Shown here: positions 2,235 through 52,016 of the stretch, piece by piece
How the letters are laid out: the number at the start of each line of letters is the position of its first letter
How positions within the stretch are numbered: position 1 is the stretch's first letter
NCBI RefSeq assembly: GCF_037042905.1
Contig: NC_087245.1
Location: 12,154,001-12,218,000, forward strand
DNA: 64,000 nucleotides
Source: Lytechinus pictus
Lineage: Eukaryota
Direction of reading: 5' to 3'
Notes under the pieces: generated by a model
Told to the model about the DNA's origin: nothing
Seen by the model: only the letters and a program-made list of their open reading frames with translations
The model's database searches: none
Made by a program: the position numbers and the translations under genes

Positions 2235-2906
2235 TTTAAGATAGTGCCCTTATTTCCCTGTGCCCCCCCCCCCCCACTTTCAACTATGCTCCGCCGCCCA
2301 TGCATTTGATTCGTCATGGATATTACTATGTTCGATCGTAAATTAGTGGGGCATGATATAGGTCATACATATTTGATATATTGTGGGATGTAGTCCCCCA
2401 TCTTCACCTCAGGATCGACATCGTTGTTTTAATGTCGACTTTAAGTCATAATCAAGAAAACTTTAAAATTCACAATGCAACTCTTTTTAATCTATGATCC
2501 CTACCGGTTCTTAGATGTATATTTCACTCGTAAATTGTTTTATCTCAAGCACCTTGTGAAAATGTCAAAACTTATGATTACAAAACTCCAAGTCAACTGG
2601 TCTCGCCAACCTCCCTTGATGTGTTAAAACTTTCATTGAACCATCGACACGTATTATCTTTGATTAAAATTCATATCCTATACATGTCCCACATGAATGG
2701 TGTAGTTCAGTTCTCGTCACCGATTTCTCTAAAAATTTTGTTCGGGTGGATGACACCGTAGCAATCGTCAACCACTTAGCGTGGGCACCCAAGTCAATCA
2801 TATTGCATGGATTGAGAATTGCTTCCGCCATCAATGTCATATTAGGGTAGAATATCGCCTGGATTTATTTATAATTTCCATTTTTCCTCTTTTTGTTCTT
2901 AAACAG

Positions 2907-3230
2907 GAGAGATGGATCGCAAAATGGCGGGAATCATCAATGGCCATTTCAAGTCTGTTCGGAATGTAGTGGTGGAGCCAGCGGAAAAACAGCTTGCTAT
3001 CTATCGCTCTGTTCTAGAGAGCGACAAGTCCAAATTCAAAGGCATTGATTTTGACCTCCGTCAGATGGTCTTTGACGAGTATCGTGAGCACGAGGGCGAG
3101 CATCCACCCAAATACCACTTCATCAACGCTATGCAATCCATTTACTACATCGATGACGTTAACGATACCTTAAGATATCTCTATGCCTCCTTGGAGGAGG
3201 GCGGGGTTATGTTGATAACCACTCTCTCGG
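2907..3230 (+). CDS. Histamine N-methyltransferase-like (class I SAM methyltransferase), internal coding exon
   Basis: Polypyrimidine tract + cag acceptor ending at 2906, donor gtaagc at 3231. Translation (G)EMDRKM...NVVVEPA...KYHFINAMQSIYYIDDVNDTLRYLYASLEEGGVMLITTLS matches HNMT-family motifs (VVEP, hFI..Q.lYY, L..GG). Phase 1 at both ends. Confidence 0.85.
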
Positions 3231-3811
3231 GTAAGCAGTTTTTCAATAACCGATAAAGGTAAGCTCTATCATGATATCTAGTCATATGGAGGAGAAAACG
3301 TGAGGAGAGTTGGTAAATTTTATCGCATTAATGAAGAAACAACAACTTTTCTTTTGAAAATGGCATGTGTGTGAAAATGGCATGTGTGGTGTAGTTGGAT
3401 CATTCAAAAGATGCTTTTACTTTACTTTACTTTACTCCAAAGATGTTGTAGGATTAAGCCTGTTCATCGATCAAGGTAGAGATGTTTATTGCTATTATCA
3501 GACAAAATTATACAGGTGCTCTACTTGTGTTGGCAGGGAGGGGTGGCAGTGGTATCGTGGACAGCCAAAAAATCCATGAACACACAAAACACTTGAAAAT
3601 CTTTCTAAATCTTAGAAGACTTGAAACTACGGAGATTTAAAGGAAATAAGAGATTGAATTAAATGACAGGAAATGTGGTACACGATCGGATGGTACATCA
3701 CATGACTTCATATTACCAAATGATACATGAGATAACATTCCATTGAATTTCATTAAATGAAATATTGATATTAAATAAAACTGGATATTTTTTCCGTATT
3801 TCACGTTGCAG

Positions 3812-4173
3812 ATGCATGTGGTTTCCAGCTGGTGTGGAACCGCTTCCCCCAAGTACAGGACGTGGCCGGACCATACCCAGGCACCAACGATATCCGACAG
3901 AGCCTGTTGGATCTCAATATCAAGTTTGAAGAAAATCACCAGAGATTATACGGGGACATAACAAGCTGTTTCCAGGAAGGGTCAAAGGAAGGGGAACTCA
4001 TCGTCGATTTCTTTAGTCAAATCATCGATCTCCGTGGTACGTCGCCCGAGCTCTATCAGGAGGTTGTCGATTATATGGGTTCGGAGCAGTGCTCGGAGAA
4101 AAAGAAAGACGGGACAATTCTCATTAACAGCGACTGGGACGCGTTCGTGGTGTACAAACCACTCTCCATCTAA
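3812..4173 (+). CDS. Histamine N-methyltransferase-like, terminal coding exon
   Basis: Acceptor ttgcag ending at 3811, phase compatible with the previous exon (G|AT = Asp). DACGFQLVWNRFP...DITSCFQEGSKEGELIVDFFSQI...SEKKKDGTILINSDWDAFVVYKPLSI* resembles the HNMT C-terminus. AATAAA near 4173 and at 4201. Confidence 0.85.
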
Positions 4174-5236: not shown

Positions 5237-6559
5237 GTCAAAGGTAAAGATCAAACTTAATCCTACACTAGCTCTCTGGACTACGTTAATTGGAGTGTTA
5301 TAAAAGGACAAATGATAATTGGTGTGTGAAACGAATGCTGGTGACTGAATGGTCGACGGATGTGAGATTGACTGAAGTGAGACGTGAAAGGTGATCGATT
5401 GCAGTCGACGGATGATCTAACTGGAGAAACAGTCTTTTCCATAAACCATCAGCAACGGACGGTCAGGCACGGTGGCATCCTGCAAGAAAACCGTGTCAGC
5501 TGAAAGTTGGATTCGAGGCCGTCACAATATTACAGACCTATATCATGATCCCCATAAAGAGAAGGGACTCTAAGCATGGTAAGGAATTGAAGCATATAAG
5601 AGATGGAATCTAAACTAAATCAAAATAAAACATCGACCGATCCGGTATGCAAACAAAATATTTTTAAAGGTTTGTAAAAGATGGGTAGAAATTGATAGCA
5701 GATCCTTGAAAGGATCAGTATTGTCAAACATCACATTTTCTTTTTTAAGTTGATAATACAAGCATTCAATCTTTGAGAAACGTATAATGTGTATTACATG
5801 TTATACATATAATATTTGATTTTGATACTATCTTATTACAATGCAGCAATGTATATCAGTGATTATTATTACGAACAAAATCAATAATATATTGATTACA
5901 GAATATTACTGAGACTAACCCTTAATTTTTTTTTTTTTTCTCTAGGTCCACAAGCAGTTCAGTGCTGGCGGATCCAGATTTCGCCAATCGTAAAAGTAGC
6001 GTAAAAAGTAGCGCTGATCTGTTACAGTTACTAAACGCTTGTGGACGCTTCTTCTTACATGTCTAATTTTGAACATCCCCCCCCCCCCTTTTCATAATTA
6101 TTTTTGCACTGCCAATAGGGGGAGCGGCCGCTTCACCCCCACTCGATCTGCCTATTCATACTCGGTTCATCTATAGCCGTAAGTTGTAAAATGGTAAACA
6201 AACCAAACGTGTATACGATGTAGATCTATTTGGAGAAGATGGTGTAGGAGAATCCTCATGTCAACCTGCTGTTAGAAATATAACTATAACGGTTTGTGGA
6301 AAGGTCAAAAGTTGCGGTCTATTAAAATTGTTAAGTAGCTTTGTCTTTTGTCGAAACAAGTTACCGGCCATGCATTCAATTATCAGTCCTCGGCACGTGC
6401 CTGATTGGTCTGTTCTCTCTTCAGTCCAGTTTTATCTTCGTATGTTTTTCTTGATATACCTTTTTGTTTGTTGATGCGGACCTCTGTATCTGTAATAAAG
6501 TTTTGACTTAGATAGAACATGGAGCTATAAAACACAGATAGCTTCATGGGTAGAATATA

Positions 6560-12935: not shown

Positions 12936-14700
12936 GAAAAAGGGAAAAAAGGTGTAACATATGATGTCATTTTCTAAATATCATGTCGTTATCCATCATA
13001 AAGTTAGATTCCCACTCGCTTCTAAGAAACCTTTACACACGTGCCATGCTGCACTAACCCTCGCGCACAATCATTCAAAAAACCCTGTTCACATTATAAT
13101 ATGACCGGGAAGTTTTGGGCTCTTGCCACTCTTGGCCACCACCCACTGTTATACGCCCCTGAGCTTAATAATAGGGAGTTTTTCGTTTCCACGACGCATG
13201 GCTGATTTAAGAACACAGTAAATGTATTGAAAATGCCCATCAAATAACAATGAACAGCTGGGAGGGCTTTGTCGAAAATCGGTGAGCCGGTGTCGGAGGC
13301 GAAAACGTCCGGCCAGTTTAATCCGTCTGCGCGGACGAAAAATCCTAGAGTATTTCAGCGGTTTTTGTCCGCGGGCAAAAAGACCGTGTTGAGTGGACAA
13401 ATTCTCCGCCGAGGGGCGGACGTTTTCTCCATGCGTAGTCTTTGTTTTTCAGTCGTCATATACACATAAGGATTCATGTTTTGCACAGCCTGTCAGCCTC
13501 TCCGTATATTGGACCGCGTATTAGCGTACCATGCAGGAAAACTATACCCCCAATAGGGTTAGGTGTTTACTTAAGGGGAGTTAGGGGTAAATTTATTATC
13601 AGGCAAGAAGGCGATCCTCATGTATATTCTATAAATGCGGTGCTAGTGTTAGGATGATTCAGCCGTTTGGGGGATTCTAGAGTATTAAATGCTTTACATA
13701 CACAACAAACTTTGCATTAAAGGTCATAATGAGATCACTCATTATCAGGCAAACATTTTACTATTTGCCCCCAAAATCACGTTTTCAGAACTCCGAACTG
13801 TCTGAAAAAAACAGTAATGTACTGTAACTCAGCTGGATGTTATACATAGGCGGATCCAGGGGGGCCGGGGGGCGAAATTATTTTTCCCACCGAGTTCTGG
13901 ACCAACATATGAATATTCATGACTTGCGTCTTCGCACTGAGAGTACGCATGCGCGTGGACTTTGCCTCGACCAGTGCCGATCGTAAGCATTCACGTTGCT
14001 CAGAATGAATTAGCATCGTCAAATTACCGGTAGGGGGCCTACCCTTACATAGTTACATAGGCCTTATAGGCTTAGATCTATATATACATCAAATTCTTAA
14101 ACACTTATCAAACTAGCTGCCATTAATGGCAAGACATGTGCTAGGGTAGGGCTAGCTCAGGCTAGCGCATTAACTTTACCTCAAATCTGGACCTGTCTAA
14201 TGCCTAATACTAATAGGAATAGCCGACTAATGCCATGGTTAACTTCGAACTTGTTAATTCCGAACTTTACGTTTGATTAGGTTTGGACCAATTTTAGCTT
14301 ATTTACCATGGTTTAATATGTCTGGTCCGTATACAGAACCAGTCCTAGATCTAAAAAAAATATCTTAGTTCTAGTCTAGTCTCTAGATCTAGACTCTGAT
14401 CTACGCGCTATCAGCATGGAACCACTAGTGTACCAAAGGGGGGGGGGGGGGCAGACTGCCCCCCTGACGAGTCACAACTGATCCAGGGGACGTGCCCCCC
14501 CTTGAGAAGCCAAATTAATAATTTGTAATGTCAAAATGCAACGAAAAAAGACGTTTGTCCCCTCTTTTGAACGTGAAGATCTTTTCTTTTTTTTCTTGTC
14601 AAATTTTTTTCAGCTACGAAATCCTTAATTTTGGGTGAAGACGGGGATCAAGATCACTGACGTTAATTTGTGCCTGACGTTAGAATACGTTCCATGCACG

Positions 14701-15020
14701 CACTGGTGTACCTAGGATTTTCCAAAAGGGGGGCAAATTTTTTAGAGGATATTTCGTCCGCGAAAAAATGTGACAAGCCCCCCCCCCCAAAAAAAAAAGG
14801 GTGTTCACCCCAAATTATGGATTTCTTAGCTGAAAAAAAATTGACAAGCAAAAAAAAAGAAAAAAGATCTTCACGTTCAAAAAAGGGGACATACGTCTTT
14901 TTCATTGCATTTTTACATTACAAATTATCAATTTGGCTTCTCAAAGGGGGCACGTCCCCTGAATCAGTTGTGACTCGTCAGAGGGACAGTCTCCCCCCCC
15001 CCCCCCTTGGTACACTAGTG
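14701..15020. mobile_element. hAT-like MITE (same family as 32266-32610) inside the foldback element
   Basis: Ends cactggtgtacc / ggtacactagtg; gttccatg at 14689-14696 and 15021-15028 (4 extra nt on the left); shares 'ctgacgagtcacaac' with the 32266 element. Confidence 0.75.
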
Positions 15021-15228
15021 GTTCCATGCTGATACAGCGTAGATCAGAGTCTAGATATAGAGACTAGACTAGAACTAAGATAAAAAAAATTTAGATCTAG
15101 GACTGGTTTTGTATACGGACTACACATTTTTAAACCATGGCAAATAAGCTAATATTTGTCTAAACCTAATTAAACGTGAAGTTCGGAATCAACCAGTTCG
15201 AAGTTAACCATGGCATTAGTCGGCTATT

Positions 15229-18200
15229 CAGTTTTGTAATCAAGGCTCAAACCTCCAAGGCCAAGGCCAAGGCTTTAATACCCAAGGCCAATGCTTCAAT
15301 ACCAAAGGCCAAGGCATGGAAACCCAAGGCCAAGGCCTGAAAACCTCAAGGCCAAGGCATTTCAAACTTACGATATACAGAACAATGAACTAACAATACT
15401 TAGGCGGCAGACATCACACATGGTAAAATGTATGTGAGCGAGGGGACTGAGCGAGAAAAAAAAATTAACCTTTGTACATTTAAAACAAAAATAATTTCAT
15501 GATAGTGACATATTAAAATAATGATATAGTTACCTGTGTACACATAATCCATAATTTTTCTATAGGCGATTTACATTGCAATAATTATTATTATCACGGT
15601 CATCTGATCCTGGCATTCTCAACGTATGTTTTCTCCACTCTCTGGGACAGGGGCAGCAGAAAATTATTATGGGGGGGGGGGGGTCAACGCCAAAAAGGCA
15701 CCCACTTTTCAAAATGAGTTTTTTTGTGCAAACAGATACATGCATTTTCAAAATGAGATTATGAACTGCGTGAAGTAATTGTGTGTTTTATAGAAATTAA
15801 GTTGAGCAAAGGCTTTCTAAAGTGATTTTTAATTATAAGATAGATATTTTGCTTTAGGTTTTACTTCTCGGCGAGAAAGCATAGCGAGCAAGCGGTTTTG
15901 AAAAAAAAAAAATTCTGAAGTTGTAAAACTTGATTTATGGTCAATTATGGGGCTAATCATTGTTGAAATTTCCTTGCGCGATGTTGCCAGCGCGAATCAC
16001 CAGCTCAAACTTCTTGACATGTCGTGTAATAAGACATGGAAATTATTTTATTCTGAGCTGGTTTTGTAATCATGAAAAAGATGTGTATCTAACTAAAAAA
16101 TAACTTTGCGCTCGCTAATTCTTTTTATATACTGACCAGTAAAGGAAGCAGTTGATTAAGCAGTTAATTACTGCATTTTAAATAAGATACATAACTCACC
16201 AATAAAAAATAATGCGAGCGCAAAGCGCGATCGAGCTCAAAAATTTGTGATATTCCAACCTGAAAACTGGACATTCTAAGCATTTTTTTGTGAACGGGAA
16301 GAGAACGAGTACAATAATTGATGCGAGTGCAGGAAGCGAGCCAAATATTTGTGATATTTCAACCATAAAGCAACATTCTATACATTTTTGTAACCATTAT
16401 AGCAGTACTGTACTAAACAATAATTGATTCAAGCACGATTCAAAATCTGTGATTTTCGAACCTAAAATGTATTATGTTTTATTATTAAAGAAGGTATTTC
16501 TTTTTTAAAAAGGGCATATTTCATTGGGAAAAAAAAAATCCTACAGGGATTTTTTTTTTTGGGGGGGGGGGGGGCAAGAGAGCACAAAGCGCAAGCTAAA
16601 ATTTTCAAATGCTTAAACTGAAAATTAGTCATTTTTAGGACTCTTGTCAGTTTTCATATTTTTTTCTGCTAACAACCACTTTTATTTAACAGTTAATTAA
16701 TCATTAATTATTAATACTTAATGATAATATTAATAATTATTAATTATTAAATTATTGTTTTTAATTATCATTTCTTGAAACCATATTGACACAAAACAAA
16801 TACGTTGTTAATTTCCTTGAAACTGTAGAAAAATGAGATTCAATGTTGAACGATATATGATTAAAAAGAAGTGAACATTTTTTCCCCTTTGTTTTGTCAA
16901 TCTGACCCAAAACAAATATAACATTTAGAAGAGAGATGGAGAGAGAAGAAGAAGTCCCACCACCAAGAATAAACTTAGACAATGGGGAAAGGGAAAGGAA
17001 AAGATGGAGTAAATGTGATATTATTTTTTAAACAATCTATTGCAAAATTAGCTTCTCTTATAGAAAGAGGGGGACAGGTTTTGTTCACTCGCTCGCTTCA
17101 ATCGCTTTCTTCTTTTTTTTTTTACAGAAATTTTGCTCTATATATGCCATGATTGGCCTCTCAAAGTTTCTGGCTCATCATGCCATTGAAATAACCCATT
17201 TGGATATGACAAAATTGGAGACTGTGTTTAAGTTTACCAAATCTTTTCAGAATATCATTAACACTTAAAACATTCTTGTTGGCCAAAGAAAATAATACAA
17301 GGAAAATCCTAATGGAATAGAAATCAACCTTGTTATCGTTCTTTAGAGTTAGCTATGTTTAAAGTATGAAAATTGTTGTCAAAATTGCAGTCAGATGTAA
17401 AAATTATTCTTGTCATCAAAGCACTATTATCTTGATCATGACCATTATTATTTGCTGTCATTATCATCATATGATTACAACACATTACCAATACATAATG
17501 CTATTTTTCATAACTGATTTATTCTTTGTTTGAATTTCTTGATAATGGTGACAATTACAATTGATGACACTGCTAGTACACTTACTACTGCTGCTGCTAC
17601 TGTTACTGGTGATTGGTAGTATTGACCATTAGTGTTATTAAATATATATATAAAAAACAATTGAAACATTTATAATTACTTATTTAAAACAAATGAAAGT
17701 ACAAAATACAAAATGCCTTGAAAAAGCCTTAAAATTTCAAGGCTCAAAATCCTCAAGGCCAAGGCCCTCTCAAGGCCAAGGCTTTGAAAAAGTAGCTAGG
17801 CATTAAGGCGCCTTATTAAAGGTCAAGTCCACCCCAGCAAAATGTTGATTTGAATAAATAGAGAAAAATCAAACTAGCATAACACTGAAAATTTAATCAA
17901 AATCGGATGTAAAATAAGAAAGTTATGGCATTTTAAAGTTTCACTTATTTTTCACAAAATAGTGATATGCACAACTCAGTGACATGCAAATGAGTCAGTC
18001 GATGATGTCCATCACTCACTATTTCTTTTGTTTTTTATTGTTTAAATTATACAATATTTCATTTTTTACAGATTTGACAATAGGGACCGACTTGACTGAA
18101 TCATATAGTATTAAACAATGCTAATTCCACATGTTTAGGGAGGAATTAATCACTGTTTCACTTGACAATGAGGAGAAAATTAGAATAATTAATATTTCAT

Positions 18201-18450
18201 ATAATAAAATATAAAAGAAATAGTGAGTGGATGACGTCATCAGTCTCCTCCTTTGCATACCAACCAGGATGTGCATATAACTGTTTTGTGAAACTTTAAA
18301 ATGTCATAACTTTCTTATTTTACATCCGATTTTGATGAAATTTTCAGTGTTATGCTTGTTGGATTTTTCTCATTTTATTCAAATCAACTTTTTGTTGGGG
18401 TGGACTTGTCCTTTAAGGCCAAGGCCGAGCATCAAGGCACTACGACGCTG
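15229..18450. mobile_element. 3.2-kb non-autonomous TIR element with (CAAGGC)n subterminal repeats, inserted in the right foldback arm
   Basis: Interrupts the arm homology at these points; degenerate ends cagttttgtaat / actacgacgctg; aaggcc arrays at 15241-15360, 17715-17810 and 18415-18440. Confidence 0.7.
17820..18412. mobile_element. Kolobok/T2-like MITE, TTAA TSD
   Basis: ttaa|aggtcaagtccacccc ... ggggtggacttgtcct|ttaa; long internal inverted symmetry; same family as 50773-51377. Confidence 0.9.
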
Positions 18451-21148
18451 ATTAGTACTAGGCATTAATTAGACAGGTCCAGATTTGAGGTAAAGTTAAT
18501 GCAGCTAGTTTATTAAGTGTTTAAGAATTGGATACATATATATATATATATATAGATCTAAGCCTATAAGACCTATGTAACTATGTAAGGGTACCGGTAA
18601 TTTGACGATGCTAATTCATTCTGAGCAACGTGAATGCTTACGATCGGCACTGGTCGAGGCCAAGTCCACGCGCATGCGTACTCTCAATCCGAAGACGCAA
18701 GTCATGAATATTCATATGTTGGTCCAGAACTCGGTGGGAAAAATAATTTCGCGGCCGGGGGCCCCTATTGGCGTTGCAAAAAAAAAGGGAGAAAAAAGAA
18801 AAAGAAGGGGAATGAAAGGAGGAAAAAAGAAGAGGAGGGAGACGAGTTAATAAGATAAGGTCAGACTTGGAAAATGATTTAAAATATATATTTCATGTCA
18901 ATTTATTAAATTTTCGTTCGCGCTTCGCGCTCGCATAGCCTGTTCGATGAGTTACATATCTTGCTCAATAGGCTGATATGTATTTCGCTCAAAATATCAA
19001 GTTTTGAAGTCAATATACAAAACATATTTCAGCTCGGACATCGAGCTTTTATTATTTTGTTTGATTTACAAATTGATTTTTCTTTAAGTGCTCTGTAAAA
19101 TGTCCGTATTATGGTGTGAATATCATTTGCAGCTTTTTGCGCTGTGCGCTCGCATTATTTGATTTGCCAAGTAGGCCTATAAATATTGTCTTTGTTTATT
19201 CCATAAGATTCTTTATATATTAATTCTGTAACAAACTATCCCCCTTTTATGACAGTTTATAAAAAACTTCGTCTCGCGATTTGCGCTCGCATTAATAGTT
19301 TAAAAACATATCAACTCAAATCCTATTCATGATTTTTTTTTCTAAGTGCTTAAATATCTAGTTTTCCGGCCTCTAATTTCAACAAATTTCACTAACTCAT
19401 TAGGCTTATTACATGTACATTAATAAATATGATAATAAAATTGTCATGAATTCCTAATAACTTAATTGTCCCTTTTTCAGAAAGGAATATCGCGCTTAGG
19501 AAGAGGAATAGGAAGATATTCATCATTTTCATATGATGACAAAATATCCTTAGGCCTAGAATATCCAGATCCTAGGTCAAAAATAATAATAAAATTATCA
19601 GCTCGCGGTTCGCACTCGCATCATTTATTAATTGCTATCCACATACACTTCACAATTTCTCTACACAGTGCTTTAGATAGTGCTTAAATTCACCATTTTC
19701 ATACCGGAATGTCAAATATTTTCCGCTCGCGCTTCGCGCTCGCATTATTGATTTTCATGATAAAAAATGAAATGTATTCAGAATGTCCAGATTCTGTCTA
19801 AATCTAAAACACGCGCACACATGTTTATTAAGATACGTAGCTTGATCTTTATTCAAAACGTGCTGAAATTATCAAGTTGCGCTCGCATTATTAATGTCTA
19901 GGAAGATACCAAATTACTCATCCTTTTTCATGATTTACAAAACATGAACAGATTGTCCCATTTTTAGGTCTGAAATCTCATTTCTTTTCCGCCCGCTTCA
20001 ATTGTTTAATTATATACCTTTACCGTTTATTTTTTACCGTTTAAAAAGTGCTTAGAATGTCAATTTTTTAGGTCGGAATGTCAAAAAAATTTCAGCTCAC
20101 GCTTCGCGCTCACATTATCTAAAAGTTGAAATATGTATCGTCTTAATGGCTAACTGCAAATCGTCCTTTACAGGTCTCTTTTCGATCAAGCCAGAACCCA
20201 TAGTAAAATTGTCTGCTCGCGCTTCGCGCTCGCAGTAATTATCTAGCTACATACGCATCTTGTTCAGGTTCACAAACATTGCCCAGAATATTCAATTTTC
20301 AGGACAAAATACATTAAATTCCCAAAAAAATTCAGCTCGCGCTTCGCGCTCGCACTATTTAGATAGGGCTTATGAGATGATAACATTGATAATGTTTTAT
20401 AAGAAAAAAGCTAAATGACTGTTAGGACATCGGCGTTTTGCCCCCCCCCCCCCCCACCCCCAATTTTTCACGATCAAGAAAATGGGGTGAAATATAGGCC
20501 TATAATTGTTCAAATGTTATGACAAAATCTATCACAAACTTTGATTTTTGTAATTAAAATGTCAAAAATTTTGCTCGCTTGCTTCGCTCGCTCGCAAGCG
20601 ATATGCTGTATCGAGCCCCCTTAAAATATTTGGCTCATTATGCCACTGAGACAACTCCTTCAAATAAAAACAAAACTCAACTTTGAGCGGCCGATCGGGG
20701 AAAATATGGGTGGGAAAAAAAAATCGGCCCCCCCCCCCCTATTGGCGGAAGCTGGATCCGCCCCTGGTTATAGACTATAACGCTGAAGCAACGTAACGCA
20801 CGGGCACGAGTGCACCGAATCTTTTGAGGCATTAGACATCTCCCTGGTCGATTGAAATCATTGCAAATAATACCCTAGACTACGAAATTACCCGACGCTG
20901 TCAAAATATAGTTCAGTTCAATTGAATGTGAAATCATCCCATTATTTCAATGATAGGGAAGGGGCACTCGGGGCAGCCATAGCAGTAGGCATCCGCCAAT
21001 ATCACTCTTCTAATTTTAAAATAGGCACTGGCCTCAGAATTGGCCTTCTAACATGTCTAATTATTGGGATATCTTTATAATGATATAAGTAATAATAAGT
21101 AGATGTGTGCTACTGTTATTGTATTATATCTCCATATATATTGTGTTT

Positions 21149-22330: not shown

Positions 22331-22702
22331 TTGTATTATTCTTTCAGCTATTTTTACAACAATTCTTTTTTAAGGGATCCCCTTTAAAATGAATAAAAGT
22401 GGTTATCTATCTTTTGTCCTTAATACCTATATGCACTATTTGCCCCCCCCCCCCCCCCCGATTCAACGATTCTATAGCCACATAAAAATGTATGAGTGGG
22501 ACCAAAGGCCTGCTAATTTTGTTGATTCACACGCAACAAGTAACAGTAACACAAACTACTTGCAAATTAAATAGGCTAGTATAAAAACAAACTCATGTAA
22601 AATTTCACGATTGAGAGAACACCTACGAGAAACAGTGGATTGTAATTTACAAATATAGTACCGAATATCTGAAAAAAATATGATTGACTTGCTTTTTCGC
22701 AA

Positions 22703-24628
22703 GGTCTCACGCGCGTAAAACATTCCCCATAGACTTGTGTGTTAAAATGGCACTTAACAAAAATTCATAAAAAATAAATGTGAAATTAGAGGGTCGAATG
22801 TTTACTACCTTTGGATAGGATATATATCTGACATTCCATATCTGCCCAGAGAAGGGTATCGTAGCCAGCTCATTTTAAAAATAAATCGCCATTCATGAAG
22901 ATAACTATGATGGGATCAAATTCATCAACTGAAACAGTAAAATAGCCCCAATTCTTCCGCCAGTCAAAAAATAGTGCCAAATCATTGATATATTTTCCCA
23001 ATTTGGGCAAAGGAAGTTCAGTAGTTACCATTTCTAGAATCAGTGTAAGATTTTGAATCATATTCATACATTTTTGTCAATCAGCAATATCAAATTGAAA
23101 AATTTCGAATGGGTTGGGTCGAACGAATATCTTTAGCCCTCCTGATGTAAGTAGGCTCATGGCACCTATATTATATGACCTATGAATTTTATTTTTTTTA
23201 ATAGCTTCTTTGCTATTCTTTTATATCTGTACACTTACACTAGCACAAAGAAATGCATTGAAAATGCTTATTTTCTATGCAATGACCCATTTTAATGTGC
23301 TACTCATACATGTTATATTCACTATATGGATGTATACATATCCTTCCTGCATATAGCCCAACAGTGAATGCAATGACAATATATAGGCCCCTATTCTCCT
23401 TGTAATATAAAGGTGTATGTAAATTTGGTGTAGATATCAGGATACCAGAACTGCCCCAAACATAATTACCAGATATACATGAGATTGAATGAGGAAACAA
23501 TAAATGAATGATAACATATTATATTACTTTAGTACATTTGCATTTGAACTATTATATCAAAATCTTCCTAGGGCTATTGCCTATCAGATGTAAGAAGAAA
23601 GAGATAAACAAATAGATAGAAAGAGGAGAGAGAAAGAAAGATAATTTTATAGATGTCATGGCTTATAAAGAAGGGGGGGGGGGGGCTAGACTAAGATTGG
23701 ATCACACAGCCACCCCCCTCCCTCCTTAGTTGAGCACTATTAGATACCTTACCTTACTCTGTGCCTTTTTCTAAATACCTTCTTGAAGGTACCACTCTAG
23801 TTCTCTTCAGTAAAGTTCAGAAAGTTCTATCTCTAGCTCTCTACCCCATTCCAAAGAACAATTTTAACATGAGCAATTTGTATAGGTCTTTCTAACATTA
23901 AGTAGGTGATCATACACTAGCACAAACTAATGATGAATCAGAACATAAAGAGGCCTAGACTCTCATTGACCAGTCTACATGCATTCCTAGGCTTACATAC
24001 ACATACCTACTAACTTTACCTGATATAGCCTTGCTAAGCCATTAAATCCATTTTTTGCACCACTTGATGACTAAACATATTGATATCAGTTAGAAATTGT
24101 TTGCTTCTGAGGGTTTTTTGCAGGTATTCCATCCACTATAGGGAATTCGCCTGTATTACTTGTAGGTCTCACGCGCGTAAAACATTCCCCATAGACTTGT
24201 GTGTTAAAATGGCACTTAACAAAAATTCATAAAAAATAAATGTGAAATTAGGGGGTCGAATGTTTACTACCTTTGGATAGGATATATATCTGACATTCCA
24301 TATCTGCCCATAGAAGGGTATCGTAGCCAGCTCATTTTAAAAATAAATTGCCATTTATGAAGATAACTATGATGGGATCAAATTCATCAACTGAAACAGT
24401 AAAATAGCCCCAATTCTTCCGCCAGTCAAAAAATAGTGCCAAATCATTGATATATCTTCCCAATTTGGGCAAAGGAAGTTCAGTAGTTACCATTTCTAGA
24501 ATCAGTGTTAGATTTTGAATCATATTCATACATTTTTGTCAATCAGCAATATCAAATTGAAAAATTTCGAATGGGTTGGGTCGAACGAATATCTTTAGCC
24601 CTCCTGATGTAATTAGGCTCATGGCACC
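22703..24628. mobile_element. Non-autonomous DNA element with 464-bp long terminal direct repeats, short imperfect TIRs and 4-bp TSD (KolobokP-like)
   Basis: Direct repeats 22703-23166 and 24165-24628 (about 7 substitutions by eye). Each starts ggtctcacgcgc and ends gctcatggcacc. gcaa flanks both outer ends. No TG..CA ends, and no PBS or PPT seen. Confidence 0.75.
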
Positions 24629-26893: not shown

Positions 26894-27881
26894 GTGGGGG
26901 GGGGGGGATATGGTACTGTACATGCCACCCCCCCCCCCCCCCCCATCTCCGAAAAGTGTGGGGGATATCATTACACCCGTGTTTGTGATGCTGTGTCAGA
27001 ACTGCTGACAAAATGCAGCCAGTCAAGGAATTTTCAAATCATATTTAAAGAAAAATTGGAACATTTCTTTTTGCTGTCCCCTGTAAAAGTGAGCAAAATG
27101 TCTGCTAATATTATACGACCATCAGAGGCAGCGTAAAGTAAAAGAATATTTCCTTTTGTAATGCGCCTGTCTGCAATTAGGCAATTAGTCGGGAATCTTT
27201 TTCTACAATCTGCAAGAAAATATGAAACAACATATTTTATCATTGCGGGATCAATGTCCATGGTCCATGGTCAGAGGGTCAGAGGGTCAGAGTGTTGGTA
27301 TTGGGGATCAGGGACGGATGTATCTAATCAGAATGGCTCCTGCTTGGACTCTTTCGAAAAGAAGAAAGAAACTAAAAAACACACACTTGCAGGATACTGT
27401 TATTGTAAAAATTACCACTTGTCGGGCCACTTGTTCACTGCAACCACCTTGCCTGTAGGTAATCTACATGGAGATCGATATGCAGCAGTATACAATACAC
27501 ATTTTTAAAAAGAAATCATTAAAATACCATCTTTGTTACCAAAAACATTAATTTTCATACAGTTGCAATTTATGTTTTATTAGTATTAAAATACCACCTT
27601 AGTTACCAAAAACATTAATTTCCATACAGTTGCAATTTATGTTTTATTAGTAACCCGGGGATCATTTTTGTATTCACCAGAGCGCTCAAAAACTGTTTTT
27701 GTGTAGGCCCTCTAGTGGTGCAAAGTAAAATTTCTAGAAAATTGTCATTTTTCAATCTATATTTTTTATTTAGAAAAAATAATTAAAAGAATTCAATTTT
27801 CTTATGAGCCAAGCTATATGAAGCATAGTTGTAATGGAAACTGACAGTGTCTAAAAAGCAAGCATTTGTCCCAAAGATTAA

Positions 27882-28430
27882 AGGGATGGTCCAGGCTGAA
27901 AATATTTATATCTTGATACATAGAGTAGAATTCACTGAGCAAAATGCAGAAAATGTCATCAAAATCGGATAACAAATAATAAAGTTATTGAAGTTTAAAG
28001 TTTAGCAATATTTTGTGAAAACAGTTGTCATGAATATTCATTAGGTGGGCTGATGATGTCACATCCCCACTTTCCGTTTTCTTATTTTTTTCACTATTTC
28101 ATACTTGTGTGAATAATATGTCTCTCTTATAAGTAAAGTAATAAGTTGCAGCAATAAATATCTAATGCACTAAATCAGTTGTCAATCCAATTTTTCTAGT
28201 TCTTGGAGGAAAAAATTTGAATAAATAATTTCATATAATAAAATACAAAAGAACAAGTGGGGATGTGACGTCATCAGCCCACCTAATGAATATTCATGAC
28301 GACTGTTTTCACAAAATCTTGCTTAACTTTAAAATTCAATCATCCGATTTTGATGAAATTTTCGGCATTTTTCTCAGTGAATTCTACTCTATTTATTGAG
28401 CCATAAATACTTTCAGCCCGGACCATCCCT
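27882..28430. mobile_element. Kolobok/T2-like MITE, TTAA TSD
   Basis: ttaa|agggatggtccaggctgaaa ... tttcagcccggaccatccct|ttaa. Confidence 0.9.
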
Positions 28431-28695
28431 TTAAGAACAGGAGAAAATGAGCCAAACATGGTCAACCTTATTTCCCCACACAGGGAGTAGTAATGTCAGA
28501 GAACAAGGTTATATCATATAATGACATCGTTCATTGAAAGAGTGGAAAGTACTTACATCTTTCAAATCCTTTCTTTCAAACAGGACAACAAATTGAGTCT
28601 AGCTGGGATTCGTCTCGCACAGGCCTGTACGGTGAACATAAGGCAAAGGGTATAAAGGCACTTCTGTAACCTGTGAAATACTGTCAAGTACTCAC

Positions 28696-32265: not shown

Positions 32266-32511
32266 CACTAGCGTACCTACGGGGGGGGGGGGCAGGGGGG
32301 CACTCTGCCCCCCCTGACGAGTCACAACCCATGCAAAAACGTATCTTTGCCCCCCCCTGACTGGCTTGAAAAACCTTTTTTTGCCCCCCCTGACGAGCTT
32401 TAAGACCTTTAATGCCCCCCTGACGAGCTTGAAGACCTTTTTTTTTTTTTTTTTTTTTTTTGGCTTGTCAATTTTTTTTCTGGAACGAAATCCTTTATTT
32501 GTGATCGAAGA

Positions 32512-32548
<37 letters not shown>

Positions 32549-32610
32549 TGTCAAATTTTTTGGCGGACGGTTTTGCCCCCCCCCTGTGGAAAATCCTAGG
32601 TATGCCACTG
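32266..32610. mobile_element. hAT-like MITE, 8-bp TSD, inserted near the end of Tx1 ORF2
   Basis: TSD gatgtgtc (32258-32265, 32611-32618); ends cactagcgtaccta / taggtatgccactg. Confidence 0.9.
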
Positions 32611-50714: not shown

Positions 50715-50772
50715 ATAAGCGTCACGTTGTTCAGCATGCATGTTCACGTTGAGAACTGTAGCACCCATTTAA

Positions 50773-51377
50773 AGGTCAAGTCCACCCCAGAAAAATGTTG
50801 ATTTGAATAAATAAAGAAAAATAAAACTAGCGTAATGCTGAAAATTTCATCTAAATCGGATGTAAAATATGAAAGTTATGACAATTTAAAGTTTCAATTA
50901 TTTTTCACAAAACAGTTATATGCACAACTCAGTGACATGCAAATGAGACACTCGATTATGTCCCTCACTCACTATTTCTATTGTTTTTTATTGATTGAAT
51001 TATACAATATTTCATTTTTTTACAAATTTGACAAAAAGGACCAACTTGACTGAACCATTTATTATCAAACATTGCTGATTCCACATGTTTAAGGAGGAAT
51101 TAATTTTTTTACTTGACAATGAGGACAAAATTAGAATATTTCATATTTTATATTTCATAAAATAAAATATGAAAGAAATAGTGAGTGGATGGCATCATCA
51201 GACTCCTCATTTGCATACCGACCAGAATGTGCATATAACTGTTTTGTGAAATTAAGCGAAACTTTAAAATGTCATAACTTTGTTATTTTTTATCCGATTT
51301 TTATGAAATTTTCAGTGTTATGCTTGGACGTTTCTATATTTGTTCAAATCAACTCTTTGTTGGGGTGGACTTGTCCT
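50773..51377. mobile_element. Kolobok/T2-like MITE (family of 17820-18412)
   Basis: ttaa|aggtcaagtccacccc ... ggggtggacttgtcct. Confidence 0.9.
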
Positions 51378-51421
51378 TAAAGAACGATATCTGAATGAGC
51401 GACTATTTGTGCCAAAGTTAA

Positions 51422-52016
51422 AGATCGAGTACACCCTAGAAAACCGTTTATTTGAATAAATAGAGAGAATCAGACAAGCATGACGATGAAAATTTCATGA
51501 AAATCGGATGTGAAATAAGAAATTTATGACATTTGGAAGTTTTGTGCTTATTTTTACAAAATAATAATATGCTCAACTCAGTAACGTGCAAATGAGAGAG
51601 TCGATGATGTCCCTCACTTACCCTTTCTTTTGTTTTTTTATTGTTTGAATTATCCAAAGTTTCAATTTTTACAGATTTTTCAATAAAGACCAACTTGACT
51701 GAACCATAACATTTCAAAATGGTAAAGTCACATGTTCAGAGAGCAAAAAGACTTCGTTTCACATGACAATGAGAAAATTTAGATATTTCATATTTCAATT
51801 AATAAAATACAAAAGAAACAGTGAGTGGGTGACGTCATCAGTTCCCTCATTTGCATACCGCTCAGGATGTGCATATAACTATTTGGTGAAATTAAGCGAA
51901 ACTTAAAGCTGTCATAACTTTCTTATTTCACACCCGATTTTGATGAAATTTTCAGTGTTATGCTTGCTTGGTAGATTTTCCTTCTTTTATTCAAATAAAC
52001 TATATGTTGGAGTGGC
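51422..52016. mobile_element. Older, diverged copy of the same MITE family, adjacent to the previous copy
   Basis: Colinear similarity to 50773-51377 (gcaaatgaga..cgatgatgtccctcact, gaccaacttgactgaacc, ctcatttgcataccg) with eroded ends. Confidence 0.8.

Follow-up and report, generated by a model that had tools for sequence, protein, structure and literature searches.

Positions 13872-18752 of the window, the 64-kb stretch of Lytechinus pictus DNA that was analysed, are occupied by a foldback element that has long inverted arms, carries no genes and is bounded by a 9-bp TSD. The TSD named in the original prediction (GGCCGGGGG) was recovered at 13863-13871 and 18753-18761, and this 9-mer occurs at just these two sites when both strands of the window are considered. 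The inverted arms, which had been put at about 770 bp, measure 771 bp on the left and 730 bp on the right when the part made of MITE sequence is counted, and the native arm is at least 551 bp long. The left arm (13872-14642) pairs with 14801-15228 and 18451-18752 (inner part, BLAST E = 1e-158; outer part, 2e-99), the right arm being interrupted by a 3.2-kb insertion, and the unpaired centre, earlier estimated as a spacer of about 160 bp, extends over 14643-14800 (158 bp). Segments of 48 bp (left arm, 14119-14166) and 9 bp (left arm, 14031-14039) are absent from the right arm. The features of the element are as follows.

13863-13871, forward strand: left 9-bp TSD (GGCCGGGGG), contained in the initial 25 bp of a GGCGGATCCAG-type repeat
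13872-14422, forward strand: native part of the left arm (551 bp) by BLAST and alignment, unbroken at about 14214-14218, the equivalent of the site of the 3.2-kb insert in the right arm
14415-14422, reverse strand: mirror copy of the 8-bp TSD of the MITE, from the arm alignment
14423-14642, reverse strand: mirror copy of the MITE, truncated to the final 220 bp and ending beside the position of the A/C homopolymer run of the full copy
14643-14688, forward strand: 46 bp of single-copy native element sequence, running into the right arm in MITE-free copies
14689-14696, forward strand: left 8-bp TSD of the MITE (GTTCCATG), from the sequence and the MITE-free site in run X10
14697-14700, forward strand: four extra bases between the TSD and the MITE end, from the sequence
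14701-15020, forward strand: complete hAT-like MITE (320 bp), of which 14801-15020 is the segment mirrored in the left arm
15021-15028, forward strand: right 8-bp TSD of the MITE (GTTCCATG), from the sequence and the MITE-free site in run X10
15021-15228, forward strand: inner native part of the right arm, by pairing with the left arm
15229-18450, no strand assigned: 3.2-kb non-coding hAT-like insert with CAG...CTG ends and CAAGGC subterminal repeats, without an intact TSD
17816-18416, no strand assigned: nested palindromic MITE (600 bp), TTAA-flanked, with copies at 50769-51382 and 51418-52015
18451-18752, forward strand: outer native part of the right arm, by pairing with the left arm
18753-18761, forward strand: right 9-bp TSD, matching the left TSD in sequence

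Within the 64-kb window there is no second copy of the foldback element or of 14643-14688, and no Rfam match reached the gathering score in 13000-19500. A single open reading frame of more than 100 amino acids is present in the element. Pfam searches at the curated cut-off gave no match in 12 of the 36 frames of at least 50 amino acids; no MULE-type DDE transposase was found among these frames, as expected for a non-autonomous copy, and neither was a P-type transposase or any other coding part. A subthreshold match to DUF3593 (E = 0.044) was taken as chance. The element lacks a coding function and is most likely inert. The perfect 9-bp TSD lies inside the 8-to-11-bp range given for MULEs in the available text of PMC6446971, and the TIRs are hundreds of base pairs long; TSD and TIR length, the only two characters used, make MULE membership plausible, and because there is no transposase in the element, the superfamily is a guess. 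A literature search for sea urchin MULEs with a 9-bp TSD found nothing.

The complete hAT-like MITE that had been proposed at 14701-15020 is indeed found there, spanning the right arm and the centre, and the truncated mirror copy proposed in the left arm was located at 14423-14642, with an arm/MITE junction that is identical in both arms. The MITE has a 12-bp imperfect TIR and no Pfam match, and it begins with CA, which we take to be a mark of hAT elements. Its family is abundant, as seen in the high summed contig depth in runs X1, X10, and X24, and a relative at 32266-32610 of the same window has a perfect 8-bp TSD. Judged from its TSD, TIR, and copy number, the inner 320-bp element qualifies as a hAT-derived MITE. 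The four extra bases at 14697-14700 could represent a 4-bp tandem duplication or the excision footprint of a second hAT-like MITE, and X2 contigs have a loose end behind 14699.

The MITE and its mirror copy are 89.7% identical (BLAST, gaps counted), with 15 substitutions in 216 aligned columns. They are closer to each other than to the relative at 32266-32610 (21 differences in 224 positions, compared with 75 and 78), but this relative belongs to a distant subfamily, which makes the comparison a weak one. The window was also compared with a family majority, derived mostly from the related organism and from summed contig depth. At the 13 sites listed, both copies depart from the majority together at 6, the left copy alone departs at 2 and the right copy alone at 4, and all differ at 1. 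The departures common to both copies point to an origin in a single insertion, although a subfamily could itself carry the six shared states. In X10, a run from the related organism, two contigs contain a MITE-free joint between 14688 and 15021, at which 9 letters fit both sides, and three further variant joints occur at the same place. The earlier view that one insertion was copied to the other arm is thus upheld by the same junction, the mirror orientation, the common departures, and the MITE-free arm in the relative, and on these sequence comparisons arm-to-arm copying of the MITE is well supported. Two independent insertions at mirror-identical sites, already regarded as very unlikely, would gain from the great abundance of the family and from a second MITE that seems to have inserted almost at this position in X2. 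However, both insertions would have had to hit the equivalent site in mirror orientation, and six departures from the family majority would have to be common to the two copies; this nearly refutes such a pair of events, which we consider highly improbable. The earlier description of the locus as a snapshot overstates its freshness, since both copies have private changes and are about 7% apart.

The arms as a whole differ at 40 of 707 columns, plus many indels. A comparison of arm-arm divergence inside and outside the MITE, which had been proposed as a check, gave 15 differences in 216 columns for the MITE part and 16 in 205 for the inner native arm (Fisher p = 0.85), an equality that is expected if one tract spanned both. 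The outer arms are closer (9/286, about 3%) than the inner arms (31/421, about 7%; p = 0.02), for which a single copying event fails to account. The best change point in divergence, at 14251, has weak support (permutation p = 0.048) and is spread over 13917-14274. The junctions of the left arm, including the truncation junction, are bridged by contigs of two independent public runs (records 6, 7, 20, and 21), with 0 substitutions at the truncation junction (records 6 and 21), so that the truncation junction is not an artefact of assembly. Among the contigs listed, no piece covers the whole stretch and no single one spans the whole element, which is compatible with a palindrome created by a chimeric or fold-back read; against the independent bridging and the number of differences between the arms, the probability of such an artefact is close to negligible.

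The locus is very probably a non-autonomous long-TIR foldback transposon into which a MITE inserted once and was then copied from arm to arm by repair. The element would probably have been mobilised by a MULE-type transposase encoded elsewhere. Its history would begin with the step documented above, in which a single hAT-like MITE, generating an 8-bp TSD, landed in native sequence close to the inner end of one arm. The common origin of the two copies is likewise documented, and as its mechanism we infer that the inverted right arm, on the same molecule or the sister chromatid, served as the template for repairing a break in the left arm or at the centre, with repair synthesis passing through the TSD into the MITE. 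The copy would have stopped 220 bp into the MITE, and its end would have become linked to 14643 during that repair or through a later deletion at the palindrome centre, with loss of the old interior. The ancestral sequence upstream of 14643, in which any microhomology at this join would have lain, has been lost. The 3.2-kb hAT-like element would subsequently have entered the right arm without being copied; it has no counterpart in the left arm, its ends fall exactly at the earlier bounds of 15229-18450, and its terminus is backed by loose contig ends before 15228 and by very high depth in X10. Afterwards the arms would have drifted independently.

This explanation has two sub-cases. Under strict inward growth, the ancestral TIR would have ended at or outside 14422, and one template switch would have made the unique interior and the MITE into TIR. 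The inner native arm and the MITE part are equally diverged, the higher identity of the outer arms could mark an original TIR of about 340-380 bp, and Galileo TIRs recruit interior sequence according to the available text of PMC3573991. However, the change point is weak and broad, the contigs of the left and right arms look alike, and no loose ends occur at 14642 among the matches listed; inward growth is a serious possibility that we lean slightly against. In the other sub-case, the whole MITE would have been copied, with either arm as donor, and a later deletion across the palindrome centre would have taken out the initial 100 bp of the left copy along with the old interior; the TIR would have been kept symmetrical and later cut back, with no growth at the expense of the interior. 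Central deletions are well known in long palindromes, and the break adjoins a homopolymer run. Moreover, the 46 bp at 14643-14688 are native and continuous with the right arm in MITE-free copies, from which it follows that the left arm may once have carried them and lost them by central deletion. Such a course requires two events, however, and a longer left copy appears in no contig among the 24 matches listed, out of a set with 6313 more; we regard it as quite possible without presuming it. The inward growth of the TIRs that was stated earlier is not demonstrated, because full conversion followed by central deletion yields the same product.

It has also to be considered that the left arm in its entirety was rebuilt by inverted copying of the MITE-bearing right end, either turning a one-ended element into a foldback or by repair from another genomic copy, and that the product then transposed here. 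The intact 9-bp TSD shows transposition with both ends, X1 contains the centre junction in another version that has diverged further (record 7, with 8 substitutions and 9 gap letters), and the one X2 outer flank listed matches the window for 10 letters only, two short pieces of it being absent from the 64-kb window. For both record 7 and the X2 flank, the source could be an allele or a different copy. Rebuilding is nevertheless unlikely, as the divergence of the arms is non-uniform, record 7 may be an allele, and X2 depth (about 35-42 on the outer arms and 15-25 on the inner parts) fits about one copy, depth not being copy number. Diverged arm-like contigs are present among the matches listed, in X1 (records 1-4) and in large number in X10. 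The absence of the left flank from X1 and X2 was set aside, since a gap of this kind proves nothing. The native part of X2 record 20 fits the left arm and its MITE part fits the right copy; as a candidate mosaic allele it is no more than a lead, since the worst-case test is not significant (p = 0.67 for substitutions and 0.13 with indels) and changes private to the window account for it just as well. A bolder and rather doubtful proposal is that the locus belongs to an allelic series of a palindrome still rewriting itself in an animal germ line, with conversion proceeding from the outside inward, tracts halting at the 3.2-kb insert, one mosaic allele, and a MITE-bearing composite that has itself transposed, the foreign DNA travelling as TIR.

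If the centre is transcribed, folding would allow a 430-bp hairpin that takes in two repeat families. No locus-specific hairpin RNA or transcript was seen in about 6 in 100 of one RNA run, the library of which is unable to show small RNA. Of 784 reads there, 18 were at least 99% alike and 737 matched the stretch over just part of their length; the inner native right arm (15016-15192) was covered no more than once per strand, and the left flank had a depth of 0.

The TU elements of the sea urchin Strongylocentrotus purpuratus are foldbacks with long arms and variable middles, in which tandem short repeats make up an outer domain of the arms and the TSD is 8 bp. In contrast, the arms of the L. 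pictus element contain two-unit repeats and an AT run at most, with no array of more than two units, and its TSD is 9 bp. A literature search for TU elements found no paper.

The element resembles Galileo of Drosophila willistoni in that one and the same foreign TE occupies mirrored places in the two TIRs. In the available text of PMC4168063, Galileo copies 112, 145, and 147 are non-autonomous, with long TIRs and fragments of other transposons in both TIRs, and the authors describe a pattern in which TIRs are extended when an insertion into one of them is transferred to the other. According to the same text, Galileo belongs to the P superfamily, has a 7-8-bp TSD, and contains inserts that are fragments, whereas the L. 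pictus element has a 9-bp TSD, no transposase that was found, and one MITE copy that is complete with both TSDs, the MITE-free state being present in a relative. In Galileo of Drosophila mojavensis, as far as the available text of PMC3573991 goes, the TIR is extended when repair uses the other TIR as template and the tract continues beyond it (TIR1-F1-F1-TIR2); that element recruits its own interior, while the DNA recruited here includes a foreign MITE. Long-TIR MULEs, in the accessible parts of PMC6446971 and PMC3310237, have TSDs of 8-11 bp, TIRs of hundreds of base pairs that when extended can take acquired sequence, and an association with siRNA; their TIRs range from 14 to 500 bp, whereas the native arm here is at least 551 bp and the host is an animal. 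The inverted arms of chromosomal palindromes exchange sequence by gene conversion and are near-identical over kilobases in the available text of PMC8600007, PMC8981503, and PMC1803023, whereas the arms here are below 1 kb and 3-8% apart.

The copying process has already been described for Galileo in the available text of PMC4168063, and no new mechanism or function is revealed here. Long TIRs arose in several unrelated groups of DNA transposons, and arm-to-arm copying is the proposed cause. The locus is a tidy example, with a donor-like copy that has both TSDs, a relative showing the MITE-free state, and, in the arm of the donor-like copy, a second insertion that was not copied, and it extends the Drosophila Galileo pattern to a sea urchin element with a 9-bp TSD. 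If the allelic series of a self-rewriting palindrome were true, the lengths of the conversion tracts, and the order in which insertion, copying, and excision took place, would be readable at one locus.

The foldback element lies between two copies of GGCCGGGGG, a 9-bp TSD that occurs at no other position in the 64-kb window, and 158 bp remain unpaired between its arms. The features of the element and its surroundings are as follows.

13872-18752, foldback element
13872-14642, left arm, pairing with 14801-15228 plus 18451-18752
14423-14642, mirror copy of the last 220 bp of the MITE, with one TSD and the flanking arm mirrored alongside
14701-15020, full MITE, 320 bp, with an 8-bp TSD at 14689-14696 and 15021-15028
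15229-18450, 3.2-kb insert with hAT-like ends, without an intact TSD
32266-32610, full-length relative of the MITE, bounded by its own perfect 8-bp TSD and inserted where a broken retrotransposon frame ends
17816-18416, 27878-28434, 50769-51382, and 51418-52015, palindromic MITE family of 560 to 620 bp
22702-23166 and 24164-24628, two units of a 465-bp direct repeat, 98.5% identical and separated by about 1 kb

Contigs from 4 of the 24 listed public sequencing runs were compared with 13600-15350 at 85% likeness, using the best-supported rows (the best 24 of about 6,300 pieces, among which no piece spanned the whole stretch). Record 6 of run X1 (14562-14737; 0 substitutions, 3 gap letters) extends from the shortened MITE copy across the spacer at 14643-14688 and the TSD into the beginning of the full MITE. 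With mirror positions taken into account, records 19, 20, and 21 of run X2, which have 30-letter overlaps each, form a path that starts in the native arm, crosses the mirror MITE, and reaches the spacer. An assembly artefact was rejected, as these independent contigs cross the left-arm/centre junctions. X1 record 7 shows an alternative form of the centre, with 8 substitutions and 9 gap letters, that is either an allele or another copy. The X2 haplotype differs from the window, its whole depth showing another letter at 14324. X2 record 17 (window 18753-18780) leaves the element end through the 9-bp TSD and one base into different sequence; this outer flank, the one listed for X2, matches the window over 10 letters only, and the new sequence, which may be either a neighbouring insertion or another locus, begins like the element's own terminus. 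A 48-bp segment (14119-14166) is missing from the right arm and from an X1 contig and is retained in an X2 contig, and the spacer holds the 9-bp direct repeat CTGACGTTA twice, at 14657-14683.

In X10, a run from a related organism, two contigs join 14688 directly to 15021, where 9 letters agree with either side, and there are three variant joints at this point. These joints are the MITE-free form of the arm, which makes the MITE an insertion and shows that 14643-14688 belongs to the native element and runs on into the right arm. Two X10 contigs match the left flank as far as 13870 and 13861 and then diverge from the element, the pattern expected of an empty site, judging from their extents without letters. 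The two MITE copies in the element differ at 21 of 224 columns, versus 75 and 78 from the distant third copy at 32266-32610. Among the rows listed (282 further rows overall), the mirrored part contained 14 sites, of which one was dropped because the other letter there was a minority. Both copies depart from the family majority at 6 of the remaining 13; only the left copy departs at 2 and only the right copy at 4, while at 1 the three letters are all different. X1 carries the same majority letters at the six jointly departing sites. Taken with the copies' similarity, same junction, and mirror orientation, these joint departures make independent insertion into the two arms very unlikely, and the original prediction of a single insertion copied to the other arm is supported. 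It is possible that a MITE subfamily with the six states explains the joint departures. The full MITE has four additional bases on its left side (14697-14700). In X2, the spacer and TSD continue beyond 14699 into the end of another hAT-like MITE, suggesting that these bases may be the footprint of an excision; a simple duplication of 4 bp would read identically.

Of 707 aligned columns, 40 differ between the arms, with a five-base A/T run scored once. The MITE part (15/216) has diverged as much as the inner native arm (16/205; p = 0.85), which is what a single repair tract would leave if it started in the arm and crossed the TSD into the MITE. In such a mechanism, a break would have been followed by invasion of the arm in inverted orientation, by synthesis past the TSD and on into the MITE, and by rejoining at 14643. 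Arm-to-arm copying is supported by the sequence comparison. The inward growth of the TIRs that had been proposed with it is one possible course, since full conversion with a later deletion across the centre yields an identical end product. The outer arms are closer to each other than the inner arms are (9/286 versus 31/421 differences; Fisher p = 0.02), which speaks against a simple one-event story; later conversion halted by the 3.2-kb insert, which left no trace in the left arm, or older inner divergence would both fit. The best change point, 14251, lies close to where the insert entered (about 14216), yet it has weak support (permutation p = 0.048) and a wide range, 13917-14274. X2 record 20 resembles a left/right mosaic, but the worst-case test was not significant. 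Both MITE copies have private changes, and the "snapshot" once envisaged is therefore not a fresh one.

The window is repeat-rich (30 to 41% GC), with numerous MITEs and apparent broken reverse-transcriptase-like frames, judged from translations. A GGCGGATCCAG-type repeat holds the element about 20 bp inside its end (13847-13871 and 18762-18775), and related repeat ends lie at 5967, 20762, and 30698. An outer-arm piece of 50 bp (13913-13962) is common to another, far more abundant repeat; it has loose ends on both sides, with about 45 to 50 RNA reads each, and very high X10 depth, and 15 bp of it also match the palindromic repeats at 176, 28041, and 28286. Two palindromic MITEs stand in tandem within 50769-52015. 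The 465-bp direct repeat may be either a young LTR-like pair or a tandem duplication, and two exon-like frames at 2903-4173 give the impression, on reading, of a putative small-molecule methyltransferase.

The element had also been proposed as a potential source of hairpin RNA. Positions 14230-15216 are predicted to fold into one hairpin (-662.6 kcal/mol; z = -43 versus 20 shuffles) that contains stretches of 34, 28, and 25 bp paired without interruption. Rfam gave no match in the element region. Reads in the RNA run were mostly partial, at the family level, and from both strands, and the native inner right arm was almost empty; the run therefore gives no indication that this locus is transcribed.

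The sea urchin TU foldback elements offer a system for comparison. In the literature searched, which makes for limited evidence, we found nothing on copying of this kind between arms in sea urchin or in an animal element with a 9-bp TSD. TSD and TIR length fit a Mutator-like element (MULE), according to features in PMC6446971 and PMC3310237, but this copy fails the transposase test, and no coding part was found in it (12 of 36 frames scanned). The element probably, though not demonstrably, derives from a MULE. The observation itself is confirmed and its earlier interpretation partly supported. In Drosophila, PMC4168063 describes D. willistoni copies of Galileo whose two TIRs both carry fragments of P, Mar, and 1360, and gives as a pattern of TIR extension an insertion into one TIR that is then transferred to its partner; PMC3573991 proposes that the opposite TIR served as repair template, with a tract extending beyond it. 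The element is not Galileo, yet it works like the extension of Galileo TIRs by a second transposon.
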